A program made the position numbers and the translations under genes. The notes under the pieces were generated by a model. The model was not told the DNA's origin. It did no database searches and saw nothing but the letters and a program-made list of their open reading frames with translations. From an uncultured Acidimicrobiaceae bacterium (GTDB lineage: Bacteria > Actinomycetota > Acidimicrobiia > Acidimicrobiales > RAAP-2): a stretch of DNA of 64,000 nt. This document shows, in pieces, positions 18,964 through 56,379 of the stretch (position 1 is the first letter of the stretch; each line of letters begins with the position of its first letter). The stretch is from positions 45,440 to 109,439 of the forward strand of contig CAWFKN010000002.1 in assembly GCA_963816405.1 (NCBI GenBank), written 5' to 3'.

Positions 18964-19001
18964 TGTCTCAGGTGCTCCTCAGGTCCGTGGGAACGGTGGC
19001 T

Positions 19002-19265: not shown

Positions 19266-19290
19266 GTGAATTCCTTCCTTGGTTGTCGAG

Positions 19291-29758: not shown

Positions 29759-30808
29759 TCAGCTGGCTCGGCCCTCCAAGATCGCCTCCACCAGCGCGGC
29801 GGCTCCCCCGTCGATCCTCGTCGGACGCCCGGCGTGCGCGGTCGCGGTCTCTGGGTCCTTCAGCCCGCTACCGGTGAGCACGCACACGACGAGTGATCCG
29901 GGCTCGACGCCGTCTCGGAGGAGCCCCGCGACGCCGGCAGCCGACGCCGGCTCGCAGAAGACCGACTCTTCGCGCGCGAGCAGCAGCCATGCCTCGATGA
30001 TGGCGTCGTCGGACACCGCACGGATGTGCCCCGAGGACGATGACGCCGCCTCGACGGCTCCCTCCCAGCTCGCCGGGTTGCCGATCCTGATCGCCGTCGC
30101 GATCGTCTCGGGGTGCTCGACTCGGTGTCCGAGGACGATCGGCGCCGCACCCTCGGCCTGGTAGCCGAAGAGCCTCGGCAGCGAGGTCGCGCGCTCGGCG
30201 TCGCGGTAGCGGCGGAAGCCTCGCCAGTAGGCGGTGATGTTGCCGGCGTTGCCGACGGGGAGGAAGAGGTGGTCGGGAGCACGACCGAGGTCGTCGACGA
30301 TCTCGTACGCCGCGGACGCCTGCCCGTCGATGCGATCAGGGTTGATCGAGTTGACGACGGTCACCGGCGCCAGGTCGGGAAGCGTCCGGACGAGCTCGAG
30401 CGCGTCGTCGAAGTTCCCGGGGACCTGAAGCACGCGTGCGCCGTGGACGAGCGCCTGGGCGAGCTTGCCGAGTGCCACCTTGCCCTCGGGGATCACGACG
30501 GCGCAGTCGATGCCCGCCCTCGCCGCATAGGCCGCCGCCGAGGCTGACGTGTTGCCGGTCGAGGCGCACACGACGGTCGTCGCGCCGCGCGCGACGGCCT
30601 TGGAGATGGCGACGGTCATGCCGCGGTCCTTGAAGCTCCCGGTGGGGTTCGCCCCCTCCACCTTCAGGTACACCTCGGCGTTCATGCGCCGCGACAGCCT
30701 TGGGGCGGCGAGCAGCGGGGTCGCGCCCTCGAGCAGGCTCACCGCGGTGACGTCGTCGGGGACGCCCACGAGCTCGCCGTAGCGGGCGATGACGCCGCCG
30801 TAGGCCAT
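29759..30808 (-). CDS. thrC: threonine synthase
   Basis: Intact 349 aa with [14 protein letters not shown] (PLP Lys) and [14 protein letters not shown]. Confidence 0.93.
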
Positions 30809-32115
30809 CAGGCCTCCCCTCCCTCGACGACGTGCAGCAGCGCGCCCACGTCCGTCACCGCATCGAGGTCGCGCAGCGCGGTGACGGTCGCCGCCATGGC
30901 CGATGCTGCCGCTCGGTGGGTCAGGAACACGAGACGTGCGTCATCGCCGAGGCCGACCTGCTCCATCGACTGGATCGAGACGCCGTGATGCCCGAAGACC
31001 GTGGCCACGGCGGCGAGCACGCCCGGCCGGTCGGCCACCTCGATGGCGAGGTAGAACGCGCTCTGGATGCCACCGGGCGCCTGGAGCTGCGTGCGACGGC
31101 TGATCGACGGCGGGCGCTCGCTCGTGGCGGCCACCCGGTTGCGCGCCGCGGCGACCAGGTCGCCGAGCACCGCCGACGCGGTCGGCGCGCCGCCGGCACC
31201 CTTGCCCTCGAGCATGAGCGGACCGGCGGCTGCGCCCTCGACGAAGATCGCGTTCGTCGCACCGTCGACCGCGGCGAGCGGATGGCCGATCGGCACCATC
31301 GTGGGGTGCACGCGGACCGTGACGCCGTCGACGCCGGTGCGCTCGGCGACCGCGAGCAGTCGCACGACGTGGCCCATCCTCGCAGCAGCCTCGATGTCCG
31401 CGGCCGTGATCCTCGAGATCCCCTCGCGTGGGACGTCCGCATCGGTCACCTCGAGGCCGAACGCGAGCGTCGACAGGATCGCTGCCTTCTGCGCGGCGTC
31501 GTGCCCATCCACGTCGGCAGAGGGGTCGCGCTCTGCGTAGCCAAGCGCGGTCGCCTCGGCGAGCACGTCCGCGTAGTCTCGGTGCTCCCTTGTCATCGTC
31601 GTGAGCACGTAGTTGGTCGTGCCGTTCACGATCCCGAGGAGCCGCTCGACGCGCTGCCCGGCGAGCGCGGTGCGCAGCACCCGGATGATCGGGATGGCCC
31701 CGGCGACGGCCGCCTCGTAGAAGAGGTCCACACCCTGGCCCGCCGCACGCTCGGTCAGGGCGCACAGCTGCGCAGCGACGAGCGCCTTGTTGGCCGTGAC
31801 GACCGAGGCGCCGGCATCGATCGCCTGGTGGACGAGCACCTCGACCTCACCCAGCCCGCCGATGAGCTCGACGACGATCGACGCGCCGGCGTCGCGGACG
31901 AGCCTGGTCGGGTCCGTCGTGAGCAGGCCCGCGTCGATGCCAGGTCGCTCGATCCCCTTGCGGGCCACCGCGATGCCGCAGAGCTCGAGTGGCGCGCCGA
32001 TCGCCTCGGCGAGCGCCTCGGCCGACGCCGGCTCGAGGAGCGCGCGGGCGACCTCGCCGCCGACGGTCCCACAGCCGAGGAGGGCCACGCGGATCGGCCC
32101 TGGCGGCTCACCCAT
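30808..32115 (-). CDS. hom: homoserine dehydrogenase (with C-terminal ACT domain)
   Basis: The start is placed at ATG 32115 ([20 protein letters not shown]). It carries the NAD-binding GxGxxG and the [10 protein letters not shown] motif. The ORF extension to 32271 is Arg-rich and unlikely to be real. Confidence 0.9.
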
Positions 32116-32117
32116 GG

Positions 32118-33413
32118 TCACGGGCACTCCAGCGCCTCGAGGTCCGAGGGCTGCTCGCGGCGGAGGACCTCGCGCGCGCGACCCTCGCGGACGAAGACGA
32201 CGGCGGGGCGTCCCACGCGGTTGTAGGTCGACGCCATCGAGTAGCCGTAGGCGCCGGTCACCGGCGTGCACAGTACGTCGCCGACGACGAGGTCGGTCGG
32301 GACCCGCGCATCGTCGACCAGGACGTCGCCGCTCTCACAGTGCTTGCCGACGACGCGCACGGCCCTGCGGCGCTGCGAGGACGTCGCACGCGGCAGGAAG
32401 GCCTCGTAGCCCGAGCCGTACAGGACCGGGCGTGGGTTGTCGCTCATCCCGCCGTCCACTGCGACGTAGGTTCGCACGCCCGGCAGCTCCTTGAGGGCGC
32501 CGACGGTGTACAACGTGACGCCGGCGCTGGCAACGATGGCGCGACCCGGCTCAGCCGTGATGCGGACGTGGGGCGACACGCCCGCCTCGGCGACCGCCGC
32601 ACGCACCGCCCTCCCCCACTCCGAGATGCTCGGCGCGACCTCTCCCGCCACGTAGGCGACGCCCAGCCCCCCTCCCACGCACAGCTCCTCGAGCCCGAGC
32701 GGCGAGAAGAACCTGGCGAGGATCGCGGCTGCCTGGGCGAGCGATCCGACGTCGAAGACCTGGCTCCCGATGTGCGCGTGGAGACCAGCCAGCGCGAGCC
32801 CGGGGGTCGACTCGATGCTCGCGAGCACCCTCGACGCCTCGCCGGACGCGATCGAGACGCCGAACTTCGTGTCCTCCTGCCCCGTCCGCACGAACTCGTG
32901 GGTGTGCGCCTCGACCCCGGGGGTCACCCGCAGGAGGACCGGCTGGCTCGACGAGCGCGATGACGTGAGCGCCGCGAGCCGAGCGAGGTCGTCGGGCCCG
33001 TCGACCACGATGCGGCCGACACCTGCGTCGAGGGCCAAACGGAGCTCGTCGAGTGACTTGTTGTTGCCGTGCAGGACGAGCCGCCCTGCAGGCACGCCGG
33101 CCGAGAGCGCACAGTGCAGCTCCCCCGCTGAGGCCACGTCCAAGCAGAGCCCGGCGCGGTGCGCGAGCGTCGCCATGGCACGACAGAGGAACGCCTTGGT
33201 CGCGTAGGCGACGCCGTCGTCGAACGCCGCGGACGCCTCTGTGCACCGCGCCTCGAGGTGCGCCTCGTCGTAGACGAAGAGCGGCGTCCCGAACTGCTTG
33301 GCCAGGGACACGAGGTCGCAGCCGCCAACTGACAGCGCCCCGTCAGCGGCGACGACCGCGGTGTCGGGCAGCAGCGTGCGGGCGACGGGTGCGGTGGACG
33401 GGCCGCTCCCCAT
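32118..33413 (-). CDS. lysA: diaminopimelate decarboxylase
   Basis: Intact 431 aa with YATKAF (PLP Lys region), GGGLGVAY and CESGD. Confidence 0.93.
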   Translation of the reverse strand: MGSGPSTAPVARTLLPDTAVVAADGALSVGGCDLVSLAKQFGTPLFVYDEAHLEARCTEASAAFDDGVAYATKAFLCRAMATLAHRAGLCLDVASAGELHCALSAGVPAGRLVLHGNNKSLDELRLALDAGVGRIVVDGPDDLARLAALTSSRSSSQPVLLRVTPGVEAHTHEFVRTGQEDTKFGVSIASGEASRVLASIESTPGLALAGLHAHIGSQVFDVGSLAQAAAILARFFSPLGLEELCVGGGLGVAYVAGEVAPSISEWGRAVRAAVAEAGVSPHVRITAEPGRAIVASAGVTLYTVGALKELPGVRTYVAVDGGMSDNPRPVLYGSGYEAFLPRATSSQRRRAVRVVGKHCESGDVLVDDARVPTDLVVGDVLCTPVTGAYGYSMASTYNRVGRPAVVFVREGRAREVLRREQPSDLEALECP

Positions 33414-33446
33414 CGCGACACCCTACGGTGAGCGCGCGTCCAGGGC

Positions 33447-35507
33447 CTATGCAGCTGGGCAGCCGTGCGAGGCCGCGAGGTGTGTCGCCGCGTCGAGCGC
33501 AGCCAGCTCGCCCCGCGTCGGCACCCGCTTCGCGAGCCGGACGAGCAACGGGGCGAGGCGACCGACGACGTAGCCATCGCCCGCGTAGGTGAAGTGCTGA
33601 CCATCGACCCAGCGCACGACCGTCGAGCCGATCGTCCTCGCGTAGCGGCCGTTCGGGCTGACCCATGCACCAAGGTCAACGACGCTGATGACACCTGGGA
33701 ACTGGCTCGCCACAGCCTCGAGCATCGCGTTGTACTCGTTCACCCGCGACGGCGCATCCTCAGGCCAGGGTTGGCCGTTCGCCTGCTCGCCCGTGTCGTA
33801 GTACGGCGTCGTGAGAAAGACGACGGGCCGCCCGGTGACCGAGAGCGTCGAGGCGAGCAGGAGCAGTCGGGCGTGCAGCGTGCAGTCGAACTGGGGATCG
33901 CCGACGTGCTGCCAGCGCCCGTCGAGGAGGTGGTCGACCACGTCGAGGCGGAACAGCATCATCGAGAGGTCGGCATGGCGGTCGCGAACGGTCTTGGACC
34001 ACCGGTAGGGCCATCCCTTGGGCGGGGCGACCTCGCAGTGCCCGGGCGAGTCGAACCGATAACCCTTCACGACCATCCACCCGCCGACGAGCGAGCACTC
34101 CGGGTTGCCGTTGACCGTGACGAAGACGTGTGCCGCTCGCATGACCGGGTTGTTGAGGCCGCCACCGAGCGTCTGGGCCATCGAGTCACCGACGAGCAGG
34201 ACCGTCGTCGTGGTCCCCGGCGGCGCTGCACGCACGGGGTTCCACCTCGCGATCCGGTCGGGGAACGGCACCGCCGCAGACGCCGTGCTCACCGAGAACG
34301 CGAGCACGCACACGAGCGCATAGGACGCGACGCCCGCGACGAGTCCGAACACGCCCTTGAGGAACCGCCGCTGCCGGATCGGCTGCTCGATGAGCACGTA
34401 GGACACCGCCGCCATGGCCACCGTCGCTGCGAGGCGCACGGCGAGGAGCGGCACGCCGAGCAGGCCAGTGTGCGCGTGGTCGATCCATAAGAAGAGCGGG
34501 AAGTGGTACAGGTAGATGCCGTACGAGATCCGCCCGATGTACGCCACTGGGCCGAGGGAGAGGGCCCGAGCTGACCAGCTGTCCTCCACGAGCACCGTCA
34601 GGGCGATTGCCGCGGCGACCACCGCCCCGAAGGCGACGTACCCGCCGCGGTACAACCCCGCACCCGTGCCGCTCACCGTGAGGAACGCCACGATCACGAG
34701 TGCCCACGCGACGAGGCCGAGCGCGTTGGCGAGCCCGCGTCTCGTTCGGGGGGCGCGGAGGAACGGCCTGTCACTGCCCGTGGTCGTGAGCAACAGGCAC
34801 GCCAGCGCCGCACCGAGGAGCATCGTCGTCGCATGCGTCTCGGTCGCGAAGTAGAGGCCGTTGATGCTCGCGCCCTGCTCGTAGCGCACCGCCGTGAAGA
34901 GGGCGCACCCGAGCGACCCGAGCACGCACAGGACTGCGATGTTCGTCCGCCGTCGGGTGAGCAGCCGGATCCCCACCAAGAGCAGCGGCCACACCAGGTA
35001 GAACTGCTCCTCGATCGCGAGCGACCACGTGTGCTGCAGCGGCGAGGGCGGGAGGCCCAGGCTGAAGTACGTCGAGTGGGCCGCGATGAGCGTCCAGTTG
35101 CCGACGTACGCCATCGTCCCGACGATCTGGCCGGGTAGGCCCGGCAGGCTGCCGTGCGGGACGCCGAGCTGCGAGTAGCACGCGACGAGCAGGACGAGCA
35201 CGACGAGGGCGGGGAGCAGCCGTCGTGCTCGACGCTCGTAGAACCGCCCGAACCTGAGTCGACCCGTCTTCTCGAGCTCGGTGAGCAGGAGCGAGGTGAT
35301 GAGGAAGCCCGACAGGACGAAGAAGACGTCGACGCCGAGGAAGCCGCCGCGCACGCCGGGGACACCCGCGTGGTACAGCACGACCCCCGCGACGGCAAGC
35401 GCTCGGATGCCGTCGAGCGCGCGCACGTGCCCGAGGGTGGGGCGCGTGGTGACGCCGCTGTCGCGCTCAACTGCCGTCGCCACAGCGCGAGGATAGGACC
35501 CGACCAT
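33447..35507 (-). CDS. acyltransferase family 3 membrane protein with C-terminal SGNH-like domain (OafA-type)
   Basis: Intact 686 aa. It starts with LDGIRALAVAGVVLYHAG, has about 10 TM segments, and ends with a soluble C-terminal domain (VLLVGDSMAQTLG). Confidence 0.8.
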   Translation of the reverse strand: MVGSYPRAVATAVERDSGVTTRPTLGHVRALDGIRALAVAGVVLYHAGVPGVRGGFLGVDVFFVLSGFLITSLLLTELEKTGRLRFGRFYERRARRLLPALVVLVLLVACYSQLGVPHGSLPGLPGQIVGTMAYVGNWTLIAAHSTYFSLGLPPSPLQHTWSLAIEEQFYLVWPLLLVGIRLLTRRRTNIAVLCVLGSLGCALFTAVRYEQGASINGLYFATETHATTMLLGAALACLLLTTTGSDRPFLRAPRTRRGLANALGLVAWALVIVAFLTVSGTGAGLYRGGYVAFGAVVAAAIALTVLVEDSWSARALSLGPVAYIGRISYGIYLYHFPLFLWIDHAHTGLLGVPLLAVRLAATVAMAAVSYVLIEQPIRQRRFLKGVFGLVAGVASYALVCVLAFSVSTASAAVPFPDRIARWNPVRAAPPGTTTTVLLVGDSMAQTLGGGLNNPVMRAAHVFVTVNGNPECSLVGGWMVVKGYRFDSPGHCEVAPPKGWPYRWSKTVRDRHADLSMMLFRLDVVDHLLDGRWQHVGDPQFDCTLHARLLLLASTLSVTGRPVVFLTTPYYDTGEQANGQPWPEDAPSRVNEYNAMLEAVASQFPGVISVVDLGAWVSPNGRYARTIGSTVVRWVDGQHFTYAGDGYVVGRLAPLLVRLAKRVPTRGELAALDAATHLAASHGCPAA

Positions 35508-35558
35508 CCGCGTCTCCGCTGAGGGCCACGGTGCGCGCCAAGTAGAATCTCCTGGTCC

Positions 35559-35633
35559 GCCTCCGTAGCTCAGCGGATAGAGCGCCGGCCTCCGGAGCCG
35601 GAAGCGCAGGTTCGAGTCCTGCCGGGGGCGCCA
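35559..35633 (+). tRNA. tRNA-Arg (anticodon CCG)
   Basis: GCCTCCGTAGCTCAGCGGATAGAGCGCCGGCCTCCGGAGCCGGAAGCGCAGGTTCGAGTCCTGCCGGGGGCGCCA. The anticodon loop is CTCCGGA and the CCA is encoded. Confidence 0.92.
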
Positions 35634-35849
35634 TTTGCACGATGATTCGATGTGTCATCTGCCCGCGACGTGCCCGAGTGGCCACCCGTCCTCGCGACAG
35701 GTGCACGTGCGGCGCATCTCGTTCCAATGTGGCCATGCAGCTACTAGCGGTCCGATACAAGGCCAACTCGGCGGCGATGTGCCAACCTTGTCGTGCCAGA
35801 GGCGTGCGGCACCTCGCCTCGCCTCGACCTGAAGGGCAGCAGCACCGTG

Positions 35850-36773: not shown

Positions 36774-38051
<1,278 letters not shown>

Positions 38052-38419
38052 GCTCACCTGATCACCGCCTGCGTCGCGTTGGGCAGGTGAACACGCCTGC
38101 CATGTCGTGGCCAATGTAGACCCACGTGCCGCCCAACCACTGGCACGATTCGCGAACGAAGTTCGTCAAGTCGTCGGGGCCTCGAGGCGACAACGGTGTC
38201 GGGCGACGCCAGGTGCACCGAGCCTCGGCACGACGTCCCGATGCGATCGTCGGCGTGGACCGGCACGTGGGCGTTGCCGCCGCTGGCACGAGACGGTCCC
38301 GCTGCGCACCCATGGGCCGCCGGCGTGCAGTCGCCCGAACCGACAAGCAGGTTGCACACGCCAGAAAGCACGCTGCTGCGCTCAAAGAGTGGGCACGTCC
38401 ATCGCCAGGCCGCGCTCGA

Positions 38420-38560
38420 GTGCCTCATGGTAGGTTCGCCCTGCAACAAGCACATAGGGCACCGATAGGGGAAGCCGGTCAAAGTCCGGCGCTGGTCCGC
38501 AACCGTGGGTGAGGCGTGGCATGCCACCTCTCACAAGTCGGGATACCGATCGATGTTCAG
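38420..38560 (+). promoter_or_regulatory. cobalamin (B12) riboswitch
   Basis: The core AGGGGAAGCCGGTCAAAGTCCGGCGCTGGTCCGCAACCGTG (38467-38507) matches the conserved GGGAA..GGTG.AA..CC...C.G..CCGC.AC.GT core. A B12-box-like AAGTCGGGATACC lies at 38535-38547, with a 5' GGTA that can pair with TACC. It sits about 100 nt upstream of the 38651 CDS. The boundaries are approximate. Confidence 0.8.
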
Positions 38561-38650
38561 GGAGTCCTCAACCGTCGAGATCGCGGCAGGGGCTCGGAGA
38601 TCCCATGCGGTGGGCTCCCCGGGTCATTGTCCCGGGAAAGAGAGTCCAGC

Positions 38651-39709
38651 ATGTCGAAGTACTTCTCACGAGTGGCCGCGTCGTTCCTCGCAGGAGGCCT
38701 TGCGGTCGCTGCGTTGGGCGTCGGCGGCGTCGCCGCTGCGAGCAGGCCGATCCCCCACCAGCGGGTGGCCAGTGCCAGCCCGGCGACGCTGCCGCAGACC
38801 AAGGCGGCGCACCGAGCGGCGGTGTGGCTCGCCTCGCAGATCGGTGCGGGAGGCTACGAGGGACCCTCGAGCAGTCCCGACCTGTCCGACACGACGATCG
38901 CGGTCCTCGCCCTCGTGGCGGCAGGCAACGAGCACGCCGTCGCCGAGCGAGCGCTGCGCTACCTCGAGGGCCATGTCGATGCCTACGTCACCGTGGACGG
39001 TGCAGACGGACCGGGACAGCTCGCCACCTTGATCCTGGATGCGCACGTCCTGCACGTGAACCCCCAGCACTTCGGGGGGACCAACCTCGTCACGAGGCTC
39101 CTCAAGACGGTGCGCACGAGGGGCGTCGACGCCGGTCTGTTCGGCGTGCAGGCCCCGACCTACAACGGCGCATTCCGACAGGGCCTCGCCCTAGCGGCGC
39201 TTGCCTCGGCCGGCGTCACGCAATCCGCGAAGGTCGGCACCGCCATCACCTGGCTCAAGCACCAGCAGTGCTCGAACGGCGGCTGGGAGGCGTACCGGTC
39301 CGTCTCGACGCCCTGCGCCCCGACAGACCCCAACACGTACACCGGCGCCGACACGAACTCGACCGCGCTCGCGATCGAGGGGTTGGAGGCGCAGCACGCA
39401 CACATGACCCGCAGTCCCCTCGGCTTCCTCAGCTCCCTGCAGTGGTCCGACGGCGGGTGGGGGTACTACGGCGGGAGCTCGGACCCGGACTCCACGGGCC
39501 TCGTGGTCCAGGCGCTGCTCGCCATGCACCAGTCGGTCTCAGCTGCCCGGTTCCAGAAGGGCACGCACGACCCGGTGACGTCGCTGCTCTCGTTCCAGCT
39601 GAAGGACGGGTCGCTCTACTTCCCCGAGCCCCCGGCGCCCAACACGCCGAGCGCGCTCGCCACCGAGCAGGCGCTTCCAGCGCTCGCGAAGAAGGCCTTC
39701 CCGTTCTGA
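38651..39709 (+). CDS. secreted prenyltransferase/terpene-cyclase-fold (alpha-alpha toroid) repeat protein
   Basis: The start is at ATG 38651, after an RBS-like gggaaagagag. It has a signal peptide (MSKYFSRVAASFLAGGLAVAALGVGGVAAA). Repeated Q/W motifs (QQCSNGGWEAY, LQWSDGGWGYYGG, FQLKDGSLYF) are typical of squalene-cyclase/prenyltransferase repeats. Confidence 0.75.
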   Translation: MSKYFSRVAASFLAGGLAVAALGVGGVAAASRPIPHQRVASASPATLPQTKAAHRAAVWLASQIGAGGYEGPSSSPDLSDTTIAVLALVAAGNEHAVAERALRYLEGHVDAYVTVDGADGPGQLATLILDAHVLHVNPQHFGGTNLVTRLLKTVRTRGVDAGLFGVQAPTYNGAFRQGLALAALASAGVTQSAKVGTAITWLKHQQCSNGGWEAYRSVSTPCAPTDPNTYTGADTNSTALAIEGLEAQHAHMTRSPLGFLSSLQWSDGGWGYYGGSSDPDSTGLVVQALLAMHQSVSAARFQKGTHDPVTSLLSFQLKDGSLYFPEPPAPNTPSALATEQALPALAKKAFPF

Positions 39710-39711
39710 CG

Positions 39712-40431
39712 GTGCGCCGCAACGCGTGGTTCGCCGCGAAGAGGTTGGTCGCGGCCGTGCTCGTCGCTGGTGCGGCGAGCACGGCCGTGGCGACGACCGG
39801 CGCCCTGCCGGCAGCCGCGATGGCGGGCCGTCGATCCGGGGCCGGGCTCGGGGAGCTTCCTTCTGGCCGGCTCGCCATGCGGGAGCTGGCGGTCGCCGTC
39901 GTGATCGACTTCGGCCCGACCGCAGGCATCAGTCCCACCGTGCTCATCAAGTGCCTGCACGTGCGTCCCGGAACGAACGGCACGGACGTCCTCGTCTCGG
40001 TCCTGCACGAGGTGCATGCAGCCGCCCCGACGTACAACGACTCAGGGCTCCTGTGCTCGATTGCCGGCTACCCCCACGACGGCTGCGGGACGTTCACCGC
40101 CTCGGGCTACGCCTACTGGTCCTACTGGCACGGTGGCACCTCATGGTCCTACGCGAACGTCGGCCCAGCGGAGTGGACGCTGCCGGACCTCGACGTCGAA
40201 GGATGGCGCTTCGAGCCCCATGGCCACGCAAGCCCAGCCGACCCACCCCCTACCGCTCCGTCGTCGCTCGCCGCGGCCTGCATGGCCCAGACGACCGGAT
40301 CGATCTCGGGCGTCGTGCAGCCCGCAGGCACGAGCAGCGAGACGGTGGTGCTGCTCGGGCTGGTCGGCCTGCTCGTCGTCGCGCTCGGAGTGGTCAGCGT
40401 CCTTCGGTGGCGGCGGCCCGCCGACGAGTGA
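39712..40431 (+). CDS. DUF4430-like extracellular protein with C-terminal membrane anchor
   Basis: A GTG start at 39712 lies 3 nt after the upstream stop, followed by a signal-like N-terminus. The domain reads VAVVIDFG...GTNGTDVL...YNDSGLLCSIAGYP...YWSYWHGGTSWSYANVG...VEGWRF. The C-terminus has a hydrophobic stretch plus RWRRP. Confidence 0.6.
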   Translation: MRRNAWFAAKRLVAAVLVAGAASTAVATTGALPAAAMAGRRSGAGLGELPSGRLAMRELAVAVVIDFGPTAGISPTVLIKCLHVRPGTNGTDVLVSVLHEVHAAAPTYNDSGLLCSIAGYPHDGCGTFTASGYAYWSYWHGGTSWSYANVGPAEWTLPDLDVEGWRFEPHGHASPADPPPTAPSSLAAACMAQTTGSISGVVQPAGTSSETVVLLGLVGLLVVALGVVSVLRWRRPADE

Positions 40432-41600
40432 GACGCCTCCTCCACAGCCGGCGCGACAGGTCGCTGCACCCAGCGGCCTGGTGGATCTGGGCAGCGGGCC
40501 TCGCCACTGCGGCCATCCAGACGACGAACCCGGTCATCCTCCTGCTGCTCGCAGCGGTCATCTGCTTCGTCGTCGCGGCACGACGGAGCAGCGAGGTGTG
40601 GTCGAGGTCGCTCCTGTTCTTCCTGCGCCTCGGGCTCATCGTGATCGCCCTGCGCGTCGTGATCACGATGCTCTTCGGCTACCGCATCGCAGGCCACACG
40701 ATCTTCACGATCCCACGCGTGCCCCTGCCGTCGTGGGCGGCCGGGGTGAGCATCGGTGGGCCCGTGACCGCCGAGATGGTGCTCCAGGGTCTGTGCGAGG
40801 GACTCCGGCTCGCGGTCGTCCTGCTCGCGTTCGGTGCCGCCAACTCGCTCGCGAGCCCCTACAGGCTGCTGCGGTGCCTGCCGGCGGTCCTCTACGAGAC
40901 CGGCGTCGCGGTCACCGTCGCCCTCGCCTACGCACCTGAGCTCGTGATGACGATCGCAAGCGTCCGCGAAGCGCGTCGGCTGCGAGGTCGACCCGTCCGG
41001 GGGTTCGCAGGGCTCCGAGGGCTCGCCGTGCCGGTCCTCGAAGGCGCGCTCGATCGCTCCCTCGAGCTCGCGTCGTCGATGGACAGTCGCGGCTACGGCC
41101 GGCGCGCGTCGGTACCCGCGTCTACGCGACGTTGGGGAGCCACGTGCACCTGCGTCGGGCTGCTGTTCGTGATGCTGGGGGTCTTCCAGGCCCTCAGCTC
41201 GACGTCGCAGTGGGTCGGTCCAGGCGCGCTCGTCGCCGGCGTCGGGCTGCTCGGCGTTGGGATCGTCCTGAGCGGTCGCCGCACGCGGCGCACGCGCTAC
41301 CGGCCCGACCTGTGGCGGCTCGCCGAGTGGGCGGTGACCTGCTCGGGCATCGCAGTGGTCGTGGCGTTCGCCGTCGCGGGGTCGAGGCAGGTGGCGGGCC
41401 TCCAGGTCGACTTCTATCCGCTCGCCTTCCCCACGGTCCCGCCGCTCTTGTGCGCCGTCGTGCTGGTCGGGCTCGTCCCGGCCGTGGTCGCACCGGTGCC
41501 CGCCTCCCCACGCGCACGCCGGGGCTCGGCTGCAGGCTCGGACGTGTCGTCGGATGGGCCGTACGGCGTGGGACCTGTCGCGGCGCTGGAGTCGCGATGA
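40428..41600 (+). CDS. ecfT: ECF transporter transmembrane (T) component, CbiQ/EcfT family
   Basis: The GTG start at 40428 overlaps the upstream stop (GTGA). The protein is polytopic and carries the conserved A-R-G coupling motifs (REARRLRG, ASSMDSRGYG). An extended C-terminal TM region follows. Confidence 0.78.
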   Translation: MRRLLHSRRDRSLHPAAWWIWAAGLATAAIQTTNPVILLLLAAVICFVVAARRSSEVWSRSLLFFLRLGLIVIALRVVITMLFGYRIAGHTIFTIPRVPLPSWAAGVSIGGPVTAEMVLQGLCEGLRLAVVLLAFGAANSLASPYRLLRCLPAVLYETGVAVTVALAYAPELVMTIASVREARRLRGRPVRGFAGLRGLAVPVLEGALDRSLELASSMDSRGYGRRASVPASTRRWGATCTCVGLLFVMLGVFQALSSTSQWVGPGALVAGVGLLGVGIVLSGRRTRRTRYRPDLWRLAEWAVTCSGIAVVVAFAVAGSRQVAGLQVDFYPLAFPTVPPLLCAVVLVGLVPAVVAPVPASPRARRGSAAGSDVSSDGPYGVGPVAALESR

Positions 41601-43237
41601 TCCGCTTCGAGCACGTCACGTTCACCTACGACGACGCCGCACCGCCGGTGCTCCACGACGTCGACCTGAACGTCGGCGAGGGGGAGCTGTGCCTCGTGGT
41701 GGGGACGACGGGATCGGGCAAGTCCACGTTCCTGCGCGCCATGAACGGGCTCGTCCCGCACGCGACGGGTGGCCGGCTCGCCGGCGACGTGGCCGTGGCA
41801 GGGCGCTCGACGCGGGACCACCTGCCTCGCGAGCTCGCCGACGTCGTCGGGCTCGTCGGCCAGAACCCCGCGGCGTCGTTCGTGTCCGACGTCGTGGAGG
41901 ACGAGCTCGCCTACACGATGGAGAACCTCGGCATCGCCCCCGCGGCGATGCGGCGCCGGGTCGAGGACACGCTCGACCTGCTCGGGCTGCACGAGCTGCG
42001 CCGGCGCCCACTGCGGACGCTCTCGGGCGGCCAGCAACAGCGCGTGGCCATCGGCGCGGTGCTCACCGCGTCGCCGAGGGTCCTCGTCCTCGACGAGCCC
42101 ACCTCGGCACTCGACCCCGCCGCGGCCGAGGAGGTTCTCGCGAGCCTCTCGCGCCTGGTCCACGACGTCGGCCTCACGGTCATCGTGGCCGAGCACCGCC
42201 TCGAGCGGGTGCTCCCCTTCGCAGACCGGGTGATCCTCGTGCCCGGCGCCGGCGGGCGCTTCGAGGACGGATCGCCGGATGCCGTGATCGCGGGCTCGCC
42301 CGTCGCCCCGCCGATCGTCGAGCTCGCCAAGGTCGCCGGCTGGCAGCCGATCCCGCTGTCCGTGCGCGACGCGCGTCGCCTCGCGGCTCCCCTCCGCGAG
42401 CGACTGTCGTCGCTGCGCACGCCGAGGGGAATGCCTGGGTCTGGGCGCACGACGTCCGCCAGCCCGGTTGCCGCCCGGCTGGTCCACGCGACGGTGTCGT
42501 ACCCCGGGTTCGACGCGCTGCACGAGGTGGACCTCTCGCTCGCCGCCGGCGAGGTCGTCGCGGTCATGGGCCGCAACGGCTCGGGGAAGTCGACCCTGCT
42601 CGCGCTCCTCGCCGGCGCGCGCGCGCCGAGCAGCGGCACCGCGAGGGTGGGTGACGAGGACCCGGCCCGCCTCACGTCGCGAGCGCTCGTGCGCGCGGTG
42701 GGTCTCGTGCCCCAGGACGCCCAGCTCCTCCTCTACGGCGAGACCGTCGCCGCCGAGTGCGAGACCGCGGACCGCGAGAAGGACCTGCCGGCCGGCACCA
42801 CGTCGGCGGTGCTCGACCGGCTCGTCAGCGGCGTGCCGCGCGACCACCACCCGCGCGACGTGTCCGAGGGCCAGCGGCTCGCGCTCGCCATGGCCGTCGT
42901 GCTCTCGCACGCACCTCGCGTCGTGCTCCTCGACGAGCCGACGCGCGGCCTCGACTACCCGGGCAAGAAGCGCCTCGAGGCGACCTTGCGCACGCTCGCC
43001 GACGACGGTGCCGCCGTCGTGGTCGCCACCCACGACGTCGAGCTGGTGGCCAGCGTCGCTGACCGCGCCGTCCTGCTGGCCGACGGCGAGGTCGTGGCCG
43101 ACGGCCCGGCGCGCGAGGTCGTGTGCCATTCGCCGGTCTTCGCGCCCCAGGTGGCGAAGGTCCTCGCACCAGAGCCGTGGCTCACGGTCGACGAGGTCCG
43201 CGAGGCGCTGGCGGTCGAGCACGAGGGCGCGACATGA
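41597..43237 (+). CDS. fused duplicated ECF/ABC ATPase (EcfA1-EcfA2-like)
   Basis: Intact 546 aa from ATG 41597 (ATGA overlap). It has two Walker A motifs (GTTGSGKST, GRNGSGKST), LSGGQQQRV plus a degenerate second signature VSEGQRLA, and two Walker B motifs (VLVLDEPT, VVLLDEPT). Confidence 0.9.
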   Translation: MIRFEHVTFTYDDAAPPVLHDVDLNVGEGELCLVVGTTGSGKSTFLRAMNGLVPHATGGRLAGDVAVAGRSTRDHLPRELADVVGLVGQNPAASFVSDVVEDELAYTMENLGIAPAAMRRRVEDTLDLLGLHELRRRPLRTLSGGQQQRVAIGAVLTASPRVLVLDEPTSALDPAAAEEVLASLSRLVHDVGLTVIVAEHRLERVLPFADRVILVPGAGGRFEDGSPDAVIAGSPVAPPIVELAKVAGWQPIPLSVRDARRLAAPLRERLSSLRTPRGMPGSGRTTSASPVAARLVHATVSYPGFDALHEVDLSLAAGEVVAVMGRNGSGKSTLLALLAGARAPSSGTARVGDEDPARLTSRALVRAVGLVPQDAQLLLYGETVAAECETADREKDLPAGTTSAVLDRLVSGVPRDHHPRDVSEGQRLALAMAVVLSHAPRVVLLDEPTRGLDYPGKKRLEATLRTLADDGAAVVVATHDVELVASVADRAVLLADGEVVADGPAREVVCHSPVFAPQVAKVLAPEPWLTVDEVREALAVEHEGAT

Positions 43238-44183
43238 CCGGCGCGCCATCCCGCGCCCCGAGGGCTCGCCTGTGCGACGGGCCGGCGCGCGCGCGACCGC
43301 CGTGCGGCTCCGGCCGCGCGCGTCGGTGCTCCTCGCAGGCGCCTCGGTGCTCGGCGTCGTGGCGTTCGGCTGGCCGTTCCTCATGGCACGCGAGCTCGGG
43401 CGCGAACCTCGCGCACGCCACGGACGCGCCCTGGATCTTCGTGGCGCTCCTCCCGATCCTCCTCGCGATCGTGCTCGGCGAGATCGCCGAGGGGTCCCTC
43501 GACGCAAAGGCGGTCGCCCTCCTCGGGATCCTGGCGCCGTGCGGCGCCGCACTGCGGGTGCCGAGCCCGGGCGTCGGCGGGGTTCGAGCCGGTGTTCTTC
43601 CTGCTCATCCCCGCCGGGCGGGTGTTCGGTCGCGGCTTCGGCTTCGTGCTTGGCGCGCTCACGCATCTTCGCCTCGTCGCTCATCACCGGCGGCGTCGGG
43701 CCGTGGCTGCCGTTCCAGATGCTCGGCGCGGCGTGGATGGGCTTCGGCGCGGGGTGTCTTCCACCTGCCACAGGGCGAGCGCGAGCTCTCGTGCTCGCGG
43801 CCTACACTGCCGTCGCCTGCGTGATCTACGGCGCGCTCCTCAACCTGTGGTTCTGGCCCTTCGGCGCGGGGACGATGACGTCGTACTCGTACGTGCCCGG
43901 CGGCGGCGTCCTCGAGAACCTCCACCGCTTCTTCTTCTTCGACCTCACGACGTCCCTCGGCTTCGATCTCCCGCGGGCGGCCACGAACGCGATCCTGGTC
44001 CTCGTGCTCGGCCGCCCCGTCCTCGCCGCGCTGCGGCGCGCGGCGCGTCGCGCCGTCTTCGAGCCCGTCGTGCACCTCGAGTCGCGACCCGACGTTGCGG
44101 GGGGCACGGTCCCGGCGCACACGGTCCCGGCGCACACGGTCCCGACAGACGGGCCCGAGGGCGCCTCCCCCTCAGCGGGCTGA
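43234..44183 (+). pseudogene. ECF S-component-like polytopic membrane protein, at least 4 frameshifts
   Basis: The ATG at 43234 overlaps the ATPase stop (ATGA). Hydrophobic segments follow each other in different frames. In order they are SVLLAGASVLGVVAFGWPFLMARELG, DAPWIFVALLPILLAIVLGEIAEGSLDAKAVALLGILAPCGAALR, FEPVFFLLIPAGRVFGRGFGFVLGAL and FASSLITGGVGPWLPFQMLGAAWMGFGAG...LNLWFWPFG. Confidence 0.6.
44103..44147. repeat. 3 x 15-nt in-frame tandem repeat near the 3' end of the S-like gene
   Basis: ggcacggtcccggcg / cacacggtcccggcg / cacacggtcccgaca, encoding TVPAHTVPAHTVP. Confidence 0.85.
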
Positions 44184-44975
44184 CGTGGCGCGACGCGCGG
44201 TGCTGCTCGGGGCCGACGCGTCGCCCGACGCGCGGTGTGCCGCTCGCAGACGACGGCGGTAGGCGACGTCGAACTCGTCGAACCGCGCGCGCAGGAGCGG
44301 ACCGGGCCAGTCCCCCGGAAGGATCTCCGCCGGGAGCAGCGGGTCGCGCTGGAGGTGCCGCAGCACCTCGGCGTCGCACTCGAAGCCCTCGGCGAGCGCG
44401 CGGGGGCCGTCGAGCGTCATGTTCTCGAGCACGCGGCACAGGTGCGTCGCACGACGTGCCCAGCCCTCGAGATCGAACGCGATCGCGGCGAGCCGGGCCG
44501 GCTCGGCCTGTGGGCGCGCGAGGAACGTCGTGGTCGCAGCCGCCGTGGGCCCGTCGAGGGCGAGCTCGAGGTTGGCCGGCCGCACCCACGTCCCGTCGCG
44601 CAGCTCGCCGAGGCGCGCCCTGCGCAGCTCGTGGCGCCGGGCGCGCCGCGTCGCGGGGGTGTCGCCGGCAGCGGTCACGACCACCACGTGCCACTCCCCC
44701 GAGAACGGTCCCGTGGCCGCCGACCTCGACACCGTGAGGCGGCCCGAGCGCTCGAGCAGCCGTCCGCCGAGGCGGTAGCGGCCCTGGCCGTCGGCGACCA
44801 CCTCCCCACGGGCAGCCATCCTCGAGAGCGCGACCCGGGCTCGGTTCTCGTTGATCCCGAAGAGCGCCGCCACGCGGACCAGCCTGCGGACCTCGAGGGT
44901 CGGCGGGGACTCGCCGAGCAGCGCGCTCGCGAGAACGCTCCTCGCCGCGAGCGGTCTCTTACGATCTTGATCCAG
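44172..44975 (-). CDS. PaaX-family transcriptional regulator (start codon uncertain)
   Basis: This is the C-terminal part of the long ORF 44172..47072. The sequence is RPLAARSVLASALLGESPPTLEVRRLVRVAALFGINENRARVALSRMAARGEV...GTWVRPANL. There is no in-frame ATG, GTG or TTG nearby. The candidates are CTG 44975 or ATC 44984. Confidence 0.7.
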   Translation of the reverse strand: MDQDRKRPLAARSVLASALLGESPPTLEVRRLVRVAALFGINENRARVALSRMAARGEVVADGQGRYRLGGRLLERSGRLTVSRSAATGPFSGEWHVVVVTAAGDTPATRRARRHELRRARLGELRDGTWVRPANLELALDGPTAAATTTFLARPQAEPARLAAIAFDLEGWARRATHLCRVLENMTLDGPRALAEGFECDAEVLRHLQRDPLLPAEILPGDWPGPLLRARFDEFDVAYRRRLRAAHRASGDASAPSSTARRATSAR

Positions 44976-45014
44976 ACGTTCGATTTCTGTAAGATAGCGG
45001 GCGTGGTGGCGACG

Positions 45015-45959
45015 ATGGTGCCGACGGAGGCCGCGCGGCCCGACGTGCTGCCGACGGACCGCCTCTCGGCGACGGGGATGGCCCTGCCCGAGCTGCGCGC
45101 GAAGTACCGCACGATCGCCGACGCGCGCAATGTCGTGAGCGTCGCTGGTCTCTGGCTCGCCACGGCGCTGATCGTCGAGCTGGGCGTGCGGGTCGGGAAC
45201 CTCTGGCTCACGCTCGCTTGCTTCGTCGCGATGGGCCCCATCCATGCACGGTTCGCGATCCTCATGCACGAGGCCGCGCACAAGCTCCTCTTCACCGCGA
45301 AGCGGTGGAACGACTGGGTCGGCACGTGGCTGCTCGCCTACCCCGCCATGGTCCCGATCTCGATCTATCGTCGCAGCCACTTCGCGCACCACCGCGAGGA
45401 GTTCGGCCCCGACGAGCCGGACATCGCCTTCTACTCGGGCTACCCCGGCCGCCCCCGCGACCTGGTCCGTCGTCTTGCGCGCGACGCCGTCGGCATCTCG
45501 GGCTACAAGAACTTCAAGGTCCTCGTGCTCGCGACCCGCTCGAAGCAGGGCCGCACCGTCGCGGTCCCGATCCTCGCGGTGCAGGTCGTCCTCTTCGCCG
45601 CGATGTGGGCGGCGACCGGCGCGTGGTGGGCCTATCCGCTCTTCTGGTGGCTGAGCTGGATGACCCAGTGGCGCGTCCTCAACCGTCTGCGCGCGATCGC
45701 CGAGCACGGCGGGATGACCCGGAGCCGCGACCGCCGCGTCACCACGCACTGCGTCCGGCAGTCCTGGATCGCCCGGCTGTGGTTCGTCCCCTACAACACG
45801 GGCTGGCACCTCGCGCACCACGTCGACATGGGCGTGCCGTGGCGCCACCTGCCCGCGTTCCACGCCGAGCTCAAGGCTGCGGGCTACGTCACCGACGAGC
45901 TCACCTACCCGAGCTACTTCGCGCTGTGGCGCGCGGCGTGCTCGGCGCGCGCCGCCTGA
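45015..45959 (+). CDS. membrane fatty-acid desaturase family protein
   Basis: The start is ATG 45015 (or GTG 45003). His boxes are HEAAHK, HFAHHRE and HLAHHVD. It is divergent from the PaaX-like gene. Confidence 0.82.
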   Translation: MVPTEAARPDVLPTDRLSATGMALPELRAKYRTIADARNVVSVAGLWLATALIVELGVRVGNLWLTLACFVAMGPIHARFAILMHEAAHKLLFTAKRWNDWVGTWLLAYPAMVPISIYRRSHFAHHREEFGPDEPDIAFYSGYPGRPRDLVRRLARDAVGISGYKNFKVLVLATRSKQGRTVAVPILAVQVVLFAAMWAATGAWWAYPLFWWLSWMTQWRVLNRLRAIAEHGGMTRSRDRRVTTHCVRQSWIARLWFVPYNTGWHLAHHVDMGVPWRHLPAFHAELKAAGYVTDELTYPSYFALWRAACSARAA

Positions 45960-46153
45960 TCCGCACGCCGAGCCAGCCGGCCATCGCGCGGGCGGATCCT
46001 CCTGTCCTGCACGCCACCTTCGCCGACCTCGGTACCACCGCTCGCGACGAGCTGGATGGGCCGAGTCAGGGCTCGGGCACCCACAGAGCTGCGACACATC
46101 GGCGCCACGGCCACACGTGAGGAGGGGCGACGAGCGGGTCAGCCGATCCGGCG

Positions 46154-46939
46154 TCAGACCGACGTCATCCCGCCGTCGACGGCGACGGCGGCACCGGTGA
46201 GACCCGACGCCAGCTCCGAGCACAGCCACGCGATGAGCGCGGCGGGCTCGGCGGGCTCGAGGAGCCGGCCGATCGGCTGGTGCGCGGCGAGCTCCTCCCC
46301 CGACGAGAGGCCGTAGAGGGCCGCGGACGCCTCCAACATGGCCGTGCGCGTCGAGCCCGGGCAGATCGCGTTGACCGTGATGCCGGTGGTCGCGAGGTCC
46401 GCGGCCATCCCCCGCACGAGGCCGACGACGGCGTGCTTGGCGGCCGTGTACGCCGAGAGGTGCAGGAGCCCGACGCTCGACGCCGCCGACGAGATCGCGA
46501 CGAGGCGACCGTGCCGGGGCGCCGGGGCCTCGAGCAGCGCGGGCACCACGGCGCTGAACAGGCGACGCACCCCGTCGAGGTTCACCGACATGACGGCCTC
46601 GAACGCGGCGTCGGAGGTCTCCCACATCGGCGTGCCGCCGGCGATCACCCCGGCCGCGGCGACGGCAGCGTCGACGCCGCCGAACTGCGCGAGTGCGGTC
46701 TCGACGGCGAGCGCCATGTCCTCGGCGCTGCGGGCGTCCCCGACGAGCCCGAGGACGCGCCCGGGGTGTCGGGCGACGACGGCGTCGAGGTCCGCCGGGG
46801 TGGCCATCGGGTAGTCGACCCCCTCGACGTCCCGGCAGCGGTCGACGGCGAGCACGTGCCAGCCGTCGGCGACCAGGGCGTCGACGGTCGCCGCTCCGAT
46901 GCCGCGTGCGGCCCCGGTCACGAGCGCGACGCGGCTCAC
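46154..46939 (-). CDS. mycofactocin-coupled-type SDR family oxidoreductase
   Basis: Intact 261 aa with ALVTGAARGIGAATV and VLAVDRC....Y.MATPADL, as in the mycofactocin-associated SDR subfamily. The GTG start overlaps the mftE stop (GTGA). Confidence 0.8.
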   Translation of the reverse strand: MSRVALVTGAARGIGAATVDALVADGWHVLAVDRCRDVEGVDYPMATPADLDAVVARHPGRVLGLVGDARSAEDMALAVETALAQFGGVDAAVAAAGVIAGGTPMWETSDAAFEAVMSVNLDGVRRLFSAVVPALLEAPAPRHGRLVAISSAASSVGLLHLSAYTAAKHAVVGLVRGMAADLATTGITVNAICPGSTRTAMLEASAALYGLSSGEELAAHQPIGRLLEPAEPAALIAWLCSELASGLTGAAVAVDGGMTSV

Positions 46940-47625
46940 GCAGCCACCGGGAAGGCCGCGCCGACGGCGTGGACCAGGTCGTCGACGAGCGCATCGAGCA
47001 CTGCGTGCCCCTCGTCGGCGGAGGCATCGGTCGGATCGCCGAGCACGCCGGTCGGCGACACCGCGGCGACACCTGAGCGGCGCAGCTCTGCGAGGAGCTC
47101 GACCAACGGTGTCACGACGCCGACCACCAGCTCATTGTGCCGTACCAGGTCCTCGGCGAGGGCGAGCACCAGCGAGGTCTCGGTCCGGCCGGCGTGCGCG
47201 TCGCCGCCCCTGACGGCGGCTGCGAAGACCAGAACGTCGTCGCCGTCGTGGCGCGCGGTGCGCTCGACGGCGGCCAGCGCGTCGCGGTTGCCACCGTGCG
47301 CCGAGACGAAGACCACCCCCCTCGTCCAGCTGCGCGCGGAGCGGACCAGCTCGGTCAGGTAGGCCGCGAGCGCGTCGGTGCCGACCGACAGCGTCCCCGC
47401 GAACCCCGCGTGCTCCCCGCTCGCCCCCACGCCGACGAGGGGTGCGACCACGACGTCGCCGCGCTGCTCGCAGAGCCGTGCACAGAGCGCGGCGGCGACC
47501 AGCGCGTCGGTCGCGAGCGGCAGGTGCGGGCCGTGCTGCTCGCACGAGCCGAGCGGCACGGCGAGGACGATCCCCCCGTCGCGCGCGCCGGCCTCGGAGC
47601 TCGTGAGCGACCCGAGGTCGCTCAC
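46936..47625 (-). CDS. mftE: mycofactocin precursor peptidase MftE (creatininase family)
   Basis: AVPLGSCEQHGPHLPLATD...GEHAGFAGTLS...FVSAHGGN. The start is set at GTG 47625, which overlaps the etfB-like stop (GTGA). Confidence 0.82.
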   Translation of the reverse strand: MSDLGSLTSSEAGARDGGIVLAVPLGSCEQHGPHLPLATDALVAAALCARLCEQRGDVVVAPLVGVGASGEHAGFAGTLSVGTDALAAYLTELVRSARSWTRGVVFVSAHGGNRDALAAVERTARHDGDDVLVFAAAVRGGDAHAGRTETSLVLALAEDLVRHNELVVGVVTPLVELLAELRRSGVAAVSPTGVLGDPTDASADEGHAVLDALVDDLVHAVGAAFPVAA

Positions 47626-55990: not shown

Positions 55991-56291
55991 CGACGACCCC
56001 GGACTCGCTGAGCCGCCCGATCGCGGCCACGATCGCGTCGACCTCCTGGTCCGTCACGTGCGCCCGCGCTGCGGCGCGCGGCGAGTCGTGGTGCTCGAGG
56101 TCGCGCAGCACCGCGACGAGCTCGTCGGACTTCACGAAGACGAGGCGCCGCGTGTCGTAGTGGTACGCGAGCGCACCAAATGGCTCAGGGCGCAGCGCCA
56201 CCTGGGGATGGAGCCGGGCCGGGACGTCGGGATCGAACGCCCGGGGCGCCTGATCGGGCGCCACGCGATCAGTAGACGCCGCAGAGCCCAT
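55980..56291 (-). CDS. mftB: mycofactocin precursor chaperone MftB (RRE/PqqD-like)
   Basis: RLHPQVALRPEPFGALAYHYDTRRLVFVKSDELVAVL. An ATG at 56291 would overlap mftA by 23 nt. An in-frame GTG at 56264 is an alternative start. Confidence 0.88.
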   Translation of the reverse strand: MGSAASTDRVAPDQAPRAFDPDVPARLHPQVALRPEPFGALAYHYDTRRLVFVKSDELVAVLRDLEHHDSPRAAARAHVTDQEVDAIVAAIGRLSESGVVDGR

Positions 56292-56379
56292 CGATCGAGA
56301 CCTCCTCGACCAGCAGCTCGGTGGCGGGCTCGTCGTCGTGCTCGACGGCGTCCTCGTGCTCGATCGTCCGCTCAGTCAT
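56269..56379 (-). CDS. mftA: mycofactocin precursor peptide
   Basis: I translated this by hand, because at 36 aa it is absent from the supplied ORF track. The sequence is MTERTIEHEDAVEHDDEPATELLVEEVSIDGLCGVY*. The acidic leader plus C-terminal IDG-x-CGVY is the MftA hallmark. Confidence 0.9.
   Translation of the reverse strand: MTERTIEHEDAVEHDDEPATELLVEEVSIDGLCGVY

Follow-up and report, generated by a model that had tools for sequence, protein, structure and literature searches.

A cobalamin riboswitch-linked ECF transporter operon of Acidimicrobiia with a candidate transcobalamin-like surface module

INTRODUCTION

The prediction that bacteria possess transcobalamin-like scavengers of vitamin B12 goes back to the definition of the SLBB superfamily by Burroughs, Balaji, Iyer, and Aravind (2007; PMC1796856), who described bacterial SLBB domains of a transcobalamin-like kind that are fused, N- or C-terminally, to alpha/alpha toroids, in proteins that carry signal peptides and anchors and are encoded in operons with CbiO-like and CbiQ-like genes. 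The hosts usually lacked key B12 biosynthetic enzymes, and B12 scavenging was inferred. Here, we describe an operon of comparable composition from an uncultured Acidimicrobiaceae bacterium, located at positions 38651-44183 of a 64,000-nucleotide (nt) stretch of contig CAWFKN010000002.1 (assembly GCA_963816405.1), the whole of which is referred to below as the window. A cobalamin riboswitch precedes genes for a secreted alpha/alpha toroid (gene 1), a membrane-anchored beta-grasp protein of the SCO2322 family (gene 2), and components of an energy-coupling factor (ECF) transporter (genes 3 to 5, the last encoding an S-component-like protein). This locus shares with the systems surveyed in 2007 a secreted or surface-anchored beta-grasp protein with a hairpin insert, a toroid that is either fused to it or encoded next to it, and the CbiQ/CbiO-like genes. 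However, the actinobacterial SCO2322 family was not described in that survey, fails the Pfam DUF4430 model (PF14478), and has Pfam and NCBIfam models of its own, and both the riboswitch linkage and the toroid-less variants reported here go beyond it.

A second close counterpart is the lsa1836-1840 operon of Latilactobacillus (Lactobacillus) sakei, which encodes an S component, a fused double ATPase, EcfT, and two separately encoded exported proteins, the transcobalamin-beta-like Lsa1839 and the transcobalamin-alpha-like toroid Lsa1840 (Verplaetse et al., bioRxiv 10.1101/864751). In the model put forward there, the alpha/beta pair picks up a ligand extracellularly and hands it over to the ECF transporter; deletion lowered heme uptake. 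Both loci have five genes and combine split alpha/beta exported proteins with an ECF transporter, but the L. sakei operon belongs to a Firmicute, has the reversed gene order and a heme phenotype, and has no reported riboswitch, whereas the protein anchored by a C-terminal transmembrane helix on a Pro-rich stalk and the larger S-like protein are features of the locus described here. The two beta proteins also differ in that the one from L. sakei is recognizable by HHpred as transcobalamin/DUF4430-like, while SCO2322 is not recognizable by sequence.

The same architecture, in which an alpha6/alpha6 barrel is followed by a beta-grasp domain at the C-terminus, is found in the eukaryotic carriers transcobalamin, intrinsic factor, and haptocorrin, and a natural toroid-SCO2322 fusion described below (P0243) has their N-to-C order. 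Unlike in these carriers, the two domains are split over two genes in the window and show no significant sequence similarity to them, and the module is membrane-anchored and would feed a prokaryotic ECF importer, whereas the carriers are taken up by receptor-mediated endocytosis.

Among ECF transporters, CbrT relies on a shared ECF module, has no extracytoplasmic binding protein, and has a small S component of about 190 amino acids (aa), and its genes are associated with B12 riboswitches in many genomes. The operon described here differs in its dedicated ECF module and in its S-like protein of about 270-300 aa. ECF-CbrT of Lactobacillus delbrueckii is reported to be an ECF-type cobalamin importer (Santos et al. 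2018, PMC5997447). Riboswitch-preceded ECF modules have also been predicted to be B12 transporters in acI Actinobacteria. In Bacteroides, BtuG is a beta-propeller, and the lipoproteins BtuG and BtuH, whose folds are unrelated to those considered here, serve a Gram-negative outer membrane by delivering B12 to the TonB-dependent BtuB. The logic is the same, in that riboswitch-controlled B12 loci encode extra surface B12-binding proteins ahead of the transporter, with BtuH containing a C-terminal B12-binding domain (PMC6143338, PMC8941943).

Our literature search brought up no study of SCO2321-SCO2325 or of this actinobacterial family, and several riboswitch and B12 papers that were checked do not mention the operon. 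A first-pass annotation of the window, which proposed the capture idea, regarded the gene combination as uncharacterized, and in doing so overlooked both the 2007 prediction and the L. sakei study. Because the concept and a Firmicute analogue had both been published, extracellular capture is not a new principle; the idea rediscovers a published prediction and applies it to a divergent, unannotated actinobacterial family. What is new here is that SCO2322 is assigned a fold, that the riboswitch linkage is strict, and that toroid-less variants, ECF-less variants, and a fusion exist.

RESULTS AND DISCUSSION

We consider it probable, on balance, that the operon encodes a dedicated (group I) ECF-type corrinoid importer of Acidimicrobiia that is repressed through a cobalamin riboswitch and has its own cell-surface capture module. 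The parts of this interpretation differ in strength: we have little doubt that the operon encodes a B12-regulated ECF importer, and its substrate is likely a corrinoid, while we lean only slightly toward binding of the corrinoid by the exported proteins, and the transcobalamin-style two-domain sandwich is put forward tentatively.

The riboswitch reported in the first-pass annotation is confirmed by Rfam. Using cmscan, the cobalamin riboswitch aptamer (RF00174) was detected at 38415-38568 on the forward strand with a score of 37.8 bits (gathering score 31.5; E 5e-6), matching the full-length model (positions 1-189), and it is the sole non-tRNA Rfam match in the window. The conserved core including the B12 box occupies 38458-38549, and 82 nt separate the end of the riboswitch from the start of gene 1, the first of five co-directional genes, of which genes 1 to 3 are identical in an independent Logan assembly. 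Folding of the leader produced a hairpin across the stretch right before the start codon with an uninformative z-score of -1.0, and scans for intrinsic terminators and promoters found none.

The linkage of this riboswitch to the operon extends well beyond the window. A scan of species-representative genomes with a SCO2322 profile yielded 80 loci, nearly all from metagenome-assembled genomes of Acidimicrobiales. Rfam confirms the riboswitch in eight of ten loci tested, and a lineage-specific covariance model built from these (R1), with which the riboswitch in the window scores 90.9 bits, produced one match per locus in 70 of the 80, always on the coding strand and 110-230 nt ahead of the first gene. 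In the other ten, no more than about 540 nt of contig precede the first detected gene, so that all loci with upstream DNA (70/70) carry the riboswitch. RF00174 at its gathering score misses the riboswitches at 5587-5678 of L005, 5554-5646 of L022, and 3805-3896 of L085, where the lineage model scores 78-87 bits; standard annotation would therefore under-call this riboswitch variant.

Gene content, scored with hidden Markov models (HMMs) and phmmer on six-frame open reading frames (ORFs), falls into three arrangements, in all of which the riboswitch comes first. The order found in the window, toroid-SCO2322-EcfT-ATPase-S, is present in 47 loci plus one that is cut; SCO2322-EcfT-ATPase-S with no toroid within 7 kb is present in 18 loci plus two that are cut; and toroid-SCO2322 with no ECF genes is present in two (L036 and L042). 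In this survey of neighborhoods, riboswitch, SCO2322, and ECF genes are strictly linked across some 70 species.

Gene 2 (39712-40431, forward strand; 239 aa, GTG start) begins 2 nt past the gene 1 stop codon. Its product starts with a hydrophobic signal/transmembrane segment; the beta-grasp domain spans about residues 59-171 and is joined by a Pro-rich linker to a C-terminal transmembrane helix, after which comes RWRR, in agreement with the earlier description of an exported, C-terminally anchored protein. It scores 73.3 bits with the NCBIfam model of the SCO2322 family (NF040672; cut-off 85), and PF28005 'SCO2322' is assigned in precomputed annotation to P0001, which is identical to the gene 2 product, and to all homologues; a search of a local Pfam copy that lacks PF28005 gave no match. 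An AlphaFold model built on 120 homologues has a core (about residues 60-200) with a predicted local distance difference test (pLDDT) score above 90. When this model was compared to the PDB with Foldseek, the top 19 matches comprised nothing but beta domains of transcobalamin, haptocorrin, and intrinsic factor along with 3u7z, a DUF4430 structure, with a template modeling (TM) score of 0.69 over 105 residues and a probability of 1.0 for the transcobalamin beta domain, and generic ubiquitin-like beta-grasps came after these, at E>=0.026 only. Among the matches is 5np4, the isolated human beta domain crystallized with cyanocobalamin.

In the gene 2 model, strands at residues 59-66 and 77-84 are followed by a helix (90-100) and then by strands at 114-117, 127-129, 132-140, and 161-171, and the pair at 114-117 and 127-129 stands in the place of the hairpin insert typical of the transcobalamin-like SLBB clade, an insert that defines this clade and contacts B12 (Burroughs et al. 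2007, PMC1796856). The most conserved motif of the family, SGLLCxIxGYPxxGCG with two invariant cysteines, sits in the insert stretch. In its predicted structure, the gene 2 product thus has the transcobalamin beta-domain/DUF4430 fold together with the defining insert of the transcobalamin-like SLBB clade. DUF4430 is the C-terminal domain of TCN proteins (PMC4350170), and the earlier label 'DUF4430-like' holds for the predicted fold and is not demonstrable by sequence.

Gene 1 (38651-39709, forward strand; 352 aa, ATG start) fits the first-pass description of a signal-peptide protein with squalene-cyclase repeats forming a toroid. It has an N-terminal signal-like segment, matches Pfam SQHop_cyclase_C (PF13243) with 28.4 bits (cut-off 26.1), and was modeled by AlphaFold as a 12-13-helix alpha/alpha barrel (pLDDT 90.6). 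Against NCBIfam NF053823 (SCO2321 family membrane protein) it reaches 171 bits, below the equivalog cut-off of 300 and with the profile partly matched, and by these scores it is a relative, but not an equivalog, of the SCO2321 family.

These same features raise the question of whether gene 1 encodes an active terpene cyclase, prenyltransferase, or glycosidase unrelated to ligand capture. PF13243 matches all 115 toroid relatives, and the best Foldseek matches of the model are class II terpene cyclases (8paj, TM score 0.61; 1sqc, E 3.7e-6; drimenyl diphosphate synthase), followed by AprG and glycoside hydrolases. However, in a profile alignment whose register is somewhat ambiguous owing to the repeats, D374-V-D376-D377 of squalene-hopene cyclase (SHC) aligns with D234-T-N236-S237 of gene 1, so that the DxDD motif is absent; D234 and N236 are invariant in the 115 toroid sequences, placing an Asn at the position of the general acid. 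An intact terpene-cyclase site had been named at the outset as a finding that would speak against capture, and it is this site that has lost its acid. The toroid is also a single barrel of about 300 residues, where SHC has two, no isoprenoid-pathway genes are adjacent, the signal peptide and two invariant cysteines are typical of exported proteins, and the gene lies behind a B12 riboswitch and occurs naturally fused to a SCO2322 domain. In addition, Pfam Cobalamin_bind (PF01122) has weak matches in 7 of the 115 toroid relatives (best E 9.7e-4), with no match in gene 1 itself. The replacement of the DxDD acid by an invariant Asn, the export, the two invariant cysteines, and the Cobalamin_bind matches in some relatives together make an enzymatic cyclase role unlikely, and an active enzyme in the broader sense strikes us as highly improbable. 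We therefore rejected the enzyme reading on the grounds of the lost motif, export, the B12 riboswitch in front of the gene, and fusion to SCO2322. As modeled, the fold is compatible with a transcobalamin-alpha-like role, but does not single that role out.

The strongest, albeit indirect, evidence that the proteins of genes 1 and 2 act jointly comes from proteins in which they are fused. Run against 1.84 billion cluster representatives, the SCO2322 profile retrieved 3,508 clusters (50% identity) at E<=1e-3. One of the top matches, P0243 (676 aa), consists of a signal peptide, a toroid, a linker of ~40 residues, a SCO2322 domain, a Thr-rich stalk, and a transmembrane anchor, which is the domain order of transcobalamin, and P0264 is a second toroid-SCO2322 fusion. 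P0243 is encoded in two independent assemblies (L085, 3998-6028; L086, 5808-7838), followed in each by genes for CbiQ, a double ATPase, and a PF12822 S component, and a riboswitch core lies upstream of its gene, where Rfam's own threshold is not reached. In ten long SCO2322 representatives, Pfam models matched nothing, and the fusion was seen only with a purpose-built toroid HMM.

The distribution of the toroid gene bears on how far this partnership extends. It heads the operon in 50 loci and is missing within 7 kb from the other 20 of the 70 riboswitch-preceded operons (L034, L038, L039, L044, L050-L053, L057, L059-L064, L067, L070, L072, L078, and L080), in which the riboswitch immediately precedes the SCO2322 gene. 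In the SCO2322 protein of L050, the one toroid-less locus inspected, a long stalk rich in Thr and Pro leads to the C-terminal membrane anchor. On the strength of these 20 operons, the beta-grasp protein is the constant ECF partner, the toroid is frequent but optional, and a two-protein sandwich cannot be obligatory. The converse arrangement is found at L036 (5188-7861) and L042 (5181-7846), where the toroid and SCO2322 genes form a stand-alone, presumably B12-regulated unit; the L036 toroid has an Ig-like domain, and a Pro/Thr/Ser-rich stalk at this locus resembles that of L050.

Alternatively, the SCO2322 beta-grasp protein could by itself serve as the extracellular receptor or hand-over factor of a corrinoid ECF importer, with the toroid as an optional add-on, rather than half of a sandwich, that has some other role such as cell-wall or polysaccharide tethering, handling of alternative corrinoids, or protection. 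Beyond the 20 toroid-less operons, this possibility is favored by the extra Ig-like domains (TIG, He_PIG, Big_3_5) of many toroid homologues, which are typical of surface-tethered proteins, by the ability of the isolated transcobalamin beta domain to bind cyanocobalamin (5np4), and by a toroid fold that is nearer to cyclases and glycosidases than to transcobalamin. We nonetheless regard it as unlikely. The fusions have the transcobalamin order, the riboswitch-preceded pair without ECF genes at L036 and L042 suggests a working unit, and the toroid gene comes first in the operon at 50 loci; moreover, the absence of the toroid refers to the 7 kb around the loci, and toroid genes may lie elsewhere in those genomes.

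For the transporter itself, the identification of EcfT and of a fused double ATPase is supported by Pfam. Gene 3 (40428-41600, forward strand; 390 aa, GTG start) encodes EcfT, the T component of the CbiQ family (PF02361, 28.4 bits, cut-off 25), and its position is kept in related loci. Gene 4 (41597-43237, forward strand; 546 aa, ATG start) encodes a fused EcfA-EcfA' double ATPase with two ABC_tran stretches (173 bits) and falls just under the equivalog cut-offs of TIGR04520 (295.9 bits, cut-off 315) and TIGR04521 (294, cut-off 330). Gene 5 (43234-44183, forward strand) encodes an S-component-like polytopic membrane protein of ~300 aa when intact, and is frameshifted in the window, as seen from three-frame translation and tblastn. 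Compared with an intact 304-aa homologue in the syntenic locus L001, tblastn and DNA alignment place three single-base insertions near 43385, 43576, and 43665, and the family profile matches the gene in four pieces in three frames (43263-43388, 43384-43587, 43571-43666, and 43650-44087), with conserved transmembrane-like segments in all three frames. The claim of five translationally coupled genes stands in part: the stop/start overlaps GTGA at 40428, ATGA at 41597, and ATGA at 43234 can be read in the sequence, but the conserved first transmembrane segment of gene 5 is in the frame of the GTG at 43272 and not of the ATG at 43234, and coupling of gene 5 is therefore uncertain. Near the C-terminal end of gene 5 (44106-44140), there is a 15-nt tandem repeat coding for TVPAH-TVPAH-TVP that is absent from the L001 homologue.

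If the frameshifts were real, the locus would be a decaying pseudogene locus without transport. The clustering of three indels within 280 bp of one gene, with genes 1 to 4 intact, is what might be expected in that case. Nevertheless, assembly error in long reads is the most likely explanation, because the shifted frames are still highly conserved relative to intact homologues, implying either a very recent change or an artifact, because the insertions sum to +3, and because the EcfT, ATPase, and S genes are frameshifted differently in two assemblies of one closely related genome (L001 and L002), a pattern to be expected when long-read assemblies are error-prone. Taken together, the L001/L002 differences and the gene 5 insertions suggest that the window derives from an error-prone long-read metagenome assembly, and we think it quite unlikely that the locus is decaying. 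A search by the exact gene 4 product for an independent assembly spanning gene 5 found none.

The family of gene 5 is recognized unevenly. Pfam matched neither gene 5 of the window nor its spliced reconstruction; the intact L001 orthologue has a weak PF07155 match (E 0.003), PF12822 (ECF_trnsprt) matches 13 of 46 orthologues (best E 2.3e-8), and the L085 orthologue is annotated with PF12822. Searches of the S-like protein against NCBIfam and PDB sequences returned nothing significant, with no CbrT-like match among the PDB sequences, and Pfam scans of the window proteins and gene 5 relatives found no CbiM/CbiN-type cobalt S components.

Several observations weigh against a corrinoid importer with its own capture module. 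At the level of sequence, PF14478 matches none of the 120 gene 2 family members, even at E<=5, an hhalign comparison of SCO2322 with the human transcobalamin beta domain gave an E-value of 0.64, and the SCO2322 profile matched no transcobalamin, intrinsic factor, or 3u7z sequence in the PDB. The E-values of the top 19 structural matches of gene 2 are modest (5e-4 to 1e-2), and for the gene 1 model, Foldseek places the transcobalamin alpha domain no higher than rank 39 (E 5.5e-4), below terpene cyclases, AprG, and glycoside hydrolases. Thus, in comparisons of the monomer models, the likeness to transcobalamin originally proposed for both exported proteins is specific for gene 2, while gene 1 is nearer to SHC (TM score 0.61 versus 0.51). 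The toroid is missing from 20 of 70 operons, two toroid-SCO2322 pairs stand under the riboswitch with no ECF genes downstream, the S-like gene is broken in the window by three +1 frameshifts, and the S-like protein (~270-300 aa) is larger than classical S components, with only some relatives recognized by Pfam. Given that gene 5 is broken and that DUF4430 is matched by fold only, the original observation is only partly confirmed, and the capture interpretation built on it likewise has partial, indirect support. The PDB-sequence search with the SCO2322 profile (alignment A1) also produced weak matches to PsaF of photosystem I (E 1.4e-3), which run through a common motif, Y-x-(E/N)-S-G-L-L-C-x-x-D-G-x-P, at about residues 106-121 of the window protein, and are probably due to chance.

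Two further points of this kind concern the substrate. Cobalt transporters are also controlled by B12 riboswitches, and L. sakei, the sole experimentally tested analogue, was linked to heme rather than B12, with deletion of its operon cutting heme uptake (bioRxiv 10.1101/864751). Along with the lack of detectable similarity between the S-like protein and the characterized B12 S component, these data would fit the import of heme or another tetrapyrrole, of cobalt, or of a B12 precursor instead of a complete corrinoid. A cobalamin riboswitch in 70 of 70 loci, however, points to B12 economy and not to iron or heme, cobalt S components of the CbiM/CbiN type are missing from the proteins scanned, and the beta-grasp model specifically matches the domains of cobalamin carriers. 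A substrate other than a complete corrinoid is, in our judgment, improbable.

For a corrinoid importer with a surface capture module, the following sequence of events may be proposed. At low intracellular coenzyme B12, the riboswitch, whose aptamer is present, would allow expression of the operon. The gene 2 beta-grasp domain would be held at the cell surface by its C-terminal membrane anchor on a stalk that is Pro-rich in the window and Pro/Thr-rich in relatives, and gene 1 would supply a secreted, catalytically dead-looking alpha/alpha toroid. The two proteins may then bind the corrinoid outside the cell, possibly sandwiched as between the alpha and beta domains of transcobalamin, and pass it to the polytopic, S-component-like gene 5 protein, with EcfT and the fused EcfAA' ATPase presumably driving import as in the known ECF mechanism. 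In such a scheme, the beta-grasp protein would be an obligatory accessory, whereas the toroid would be frequent but dispensable. A more far-reaching version, to which we give slightly less than even odds, is that the SCO2321-like toroid and SCO2322 are true, very divergent homologues of the transcobalamin domains and form a high-affinity 'split transcobalamin' on the surface that feeds an unusually large S component.

The remainder of the window was read by eye from its translations, and neither a gene for B12 biosynthesis nor a B12-dependent enzyme was recognized in the window. A glutamate dehydrogenase gene (36774-38114, reverse strand) lies directly upstream of the riboswitch, a neighborhood that is also present at the related locus L001. 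At the other end, an ORF for a PaaX-like transcriptional regulator (44172 to about 45000, reverse strand) converges on the operon, a long ORF listed at 44172-47072 is probably a high-G+C artifact, and a fatty-acid-desaturase-like ORF is found at about 44900-45959 (forward strand). Farther away are an ATP synthase operon (13636-20238, reverse strand), a thrC/hom/lysA-like block (29759-35654, reverse strand), and, at 54890-56375 (reverse strand), a radical SAM/SPASM-looking ORF with a small neighbor that resembles a mycofactocin-type maturase pair. The window also contains two tRNA genes (1574-1646, reverse strand; 35559-35630, forward strand).

CONCLUSIONS

How Gram-positive and actinobacterial lineages take up B12 is poorly understood, and the genome-based prediction of B12 consumers is acknowledged to be weak (bioRxiv 10.64898/2026.09.01.748612). 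The operon family described here, which is large, widespread in Acidimicrobiia, and strictly linked to a riboswitch, provides a clean, testable candidate, while current annotation labels its members just 'SCO2322 family protein' or 'prenyltransferase/squalene oxidase repeat protein'. Corrinoid binding by the surface proteins, if demonstrated, would be the first biochemical proof of the bacterial transcobalamin-like scavengers predicted in 2007 and would imply that ECF transporters can use extracytoplasmic capture proteins, and it would allow B12 auxotrophy and scavenging to be annotated better in genomes of Acidimicrobiia and of the Streptomyces type. Should the two proteins indeed constitute a split transcobalamin, ECF transporters, whose definition includes the lack of an extracytoplasmic binding protein, would gain a widespread subclass that has one. 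Such a system would also be a main route by which soil and peat Actinomycetota take up B12 and would have a bearing on the bacterial origin of animal B12 carriers.

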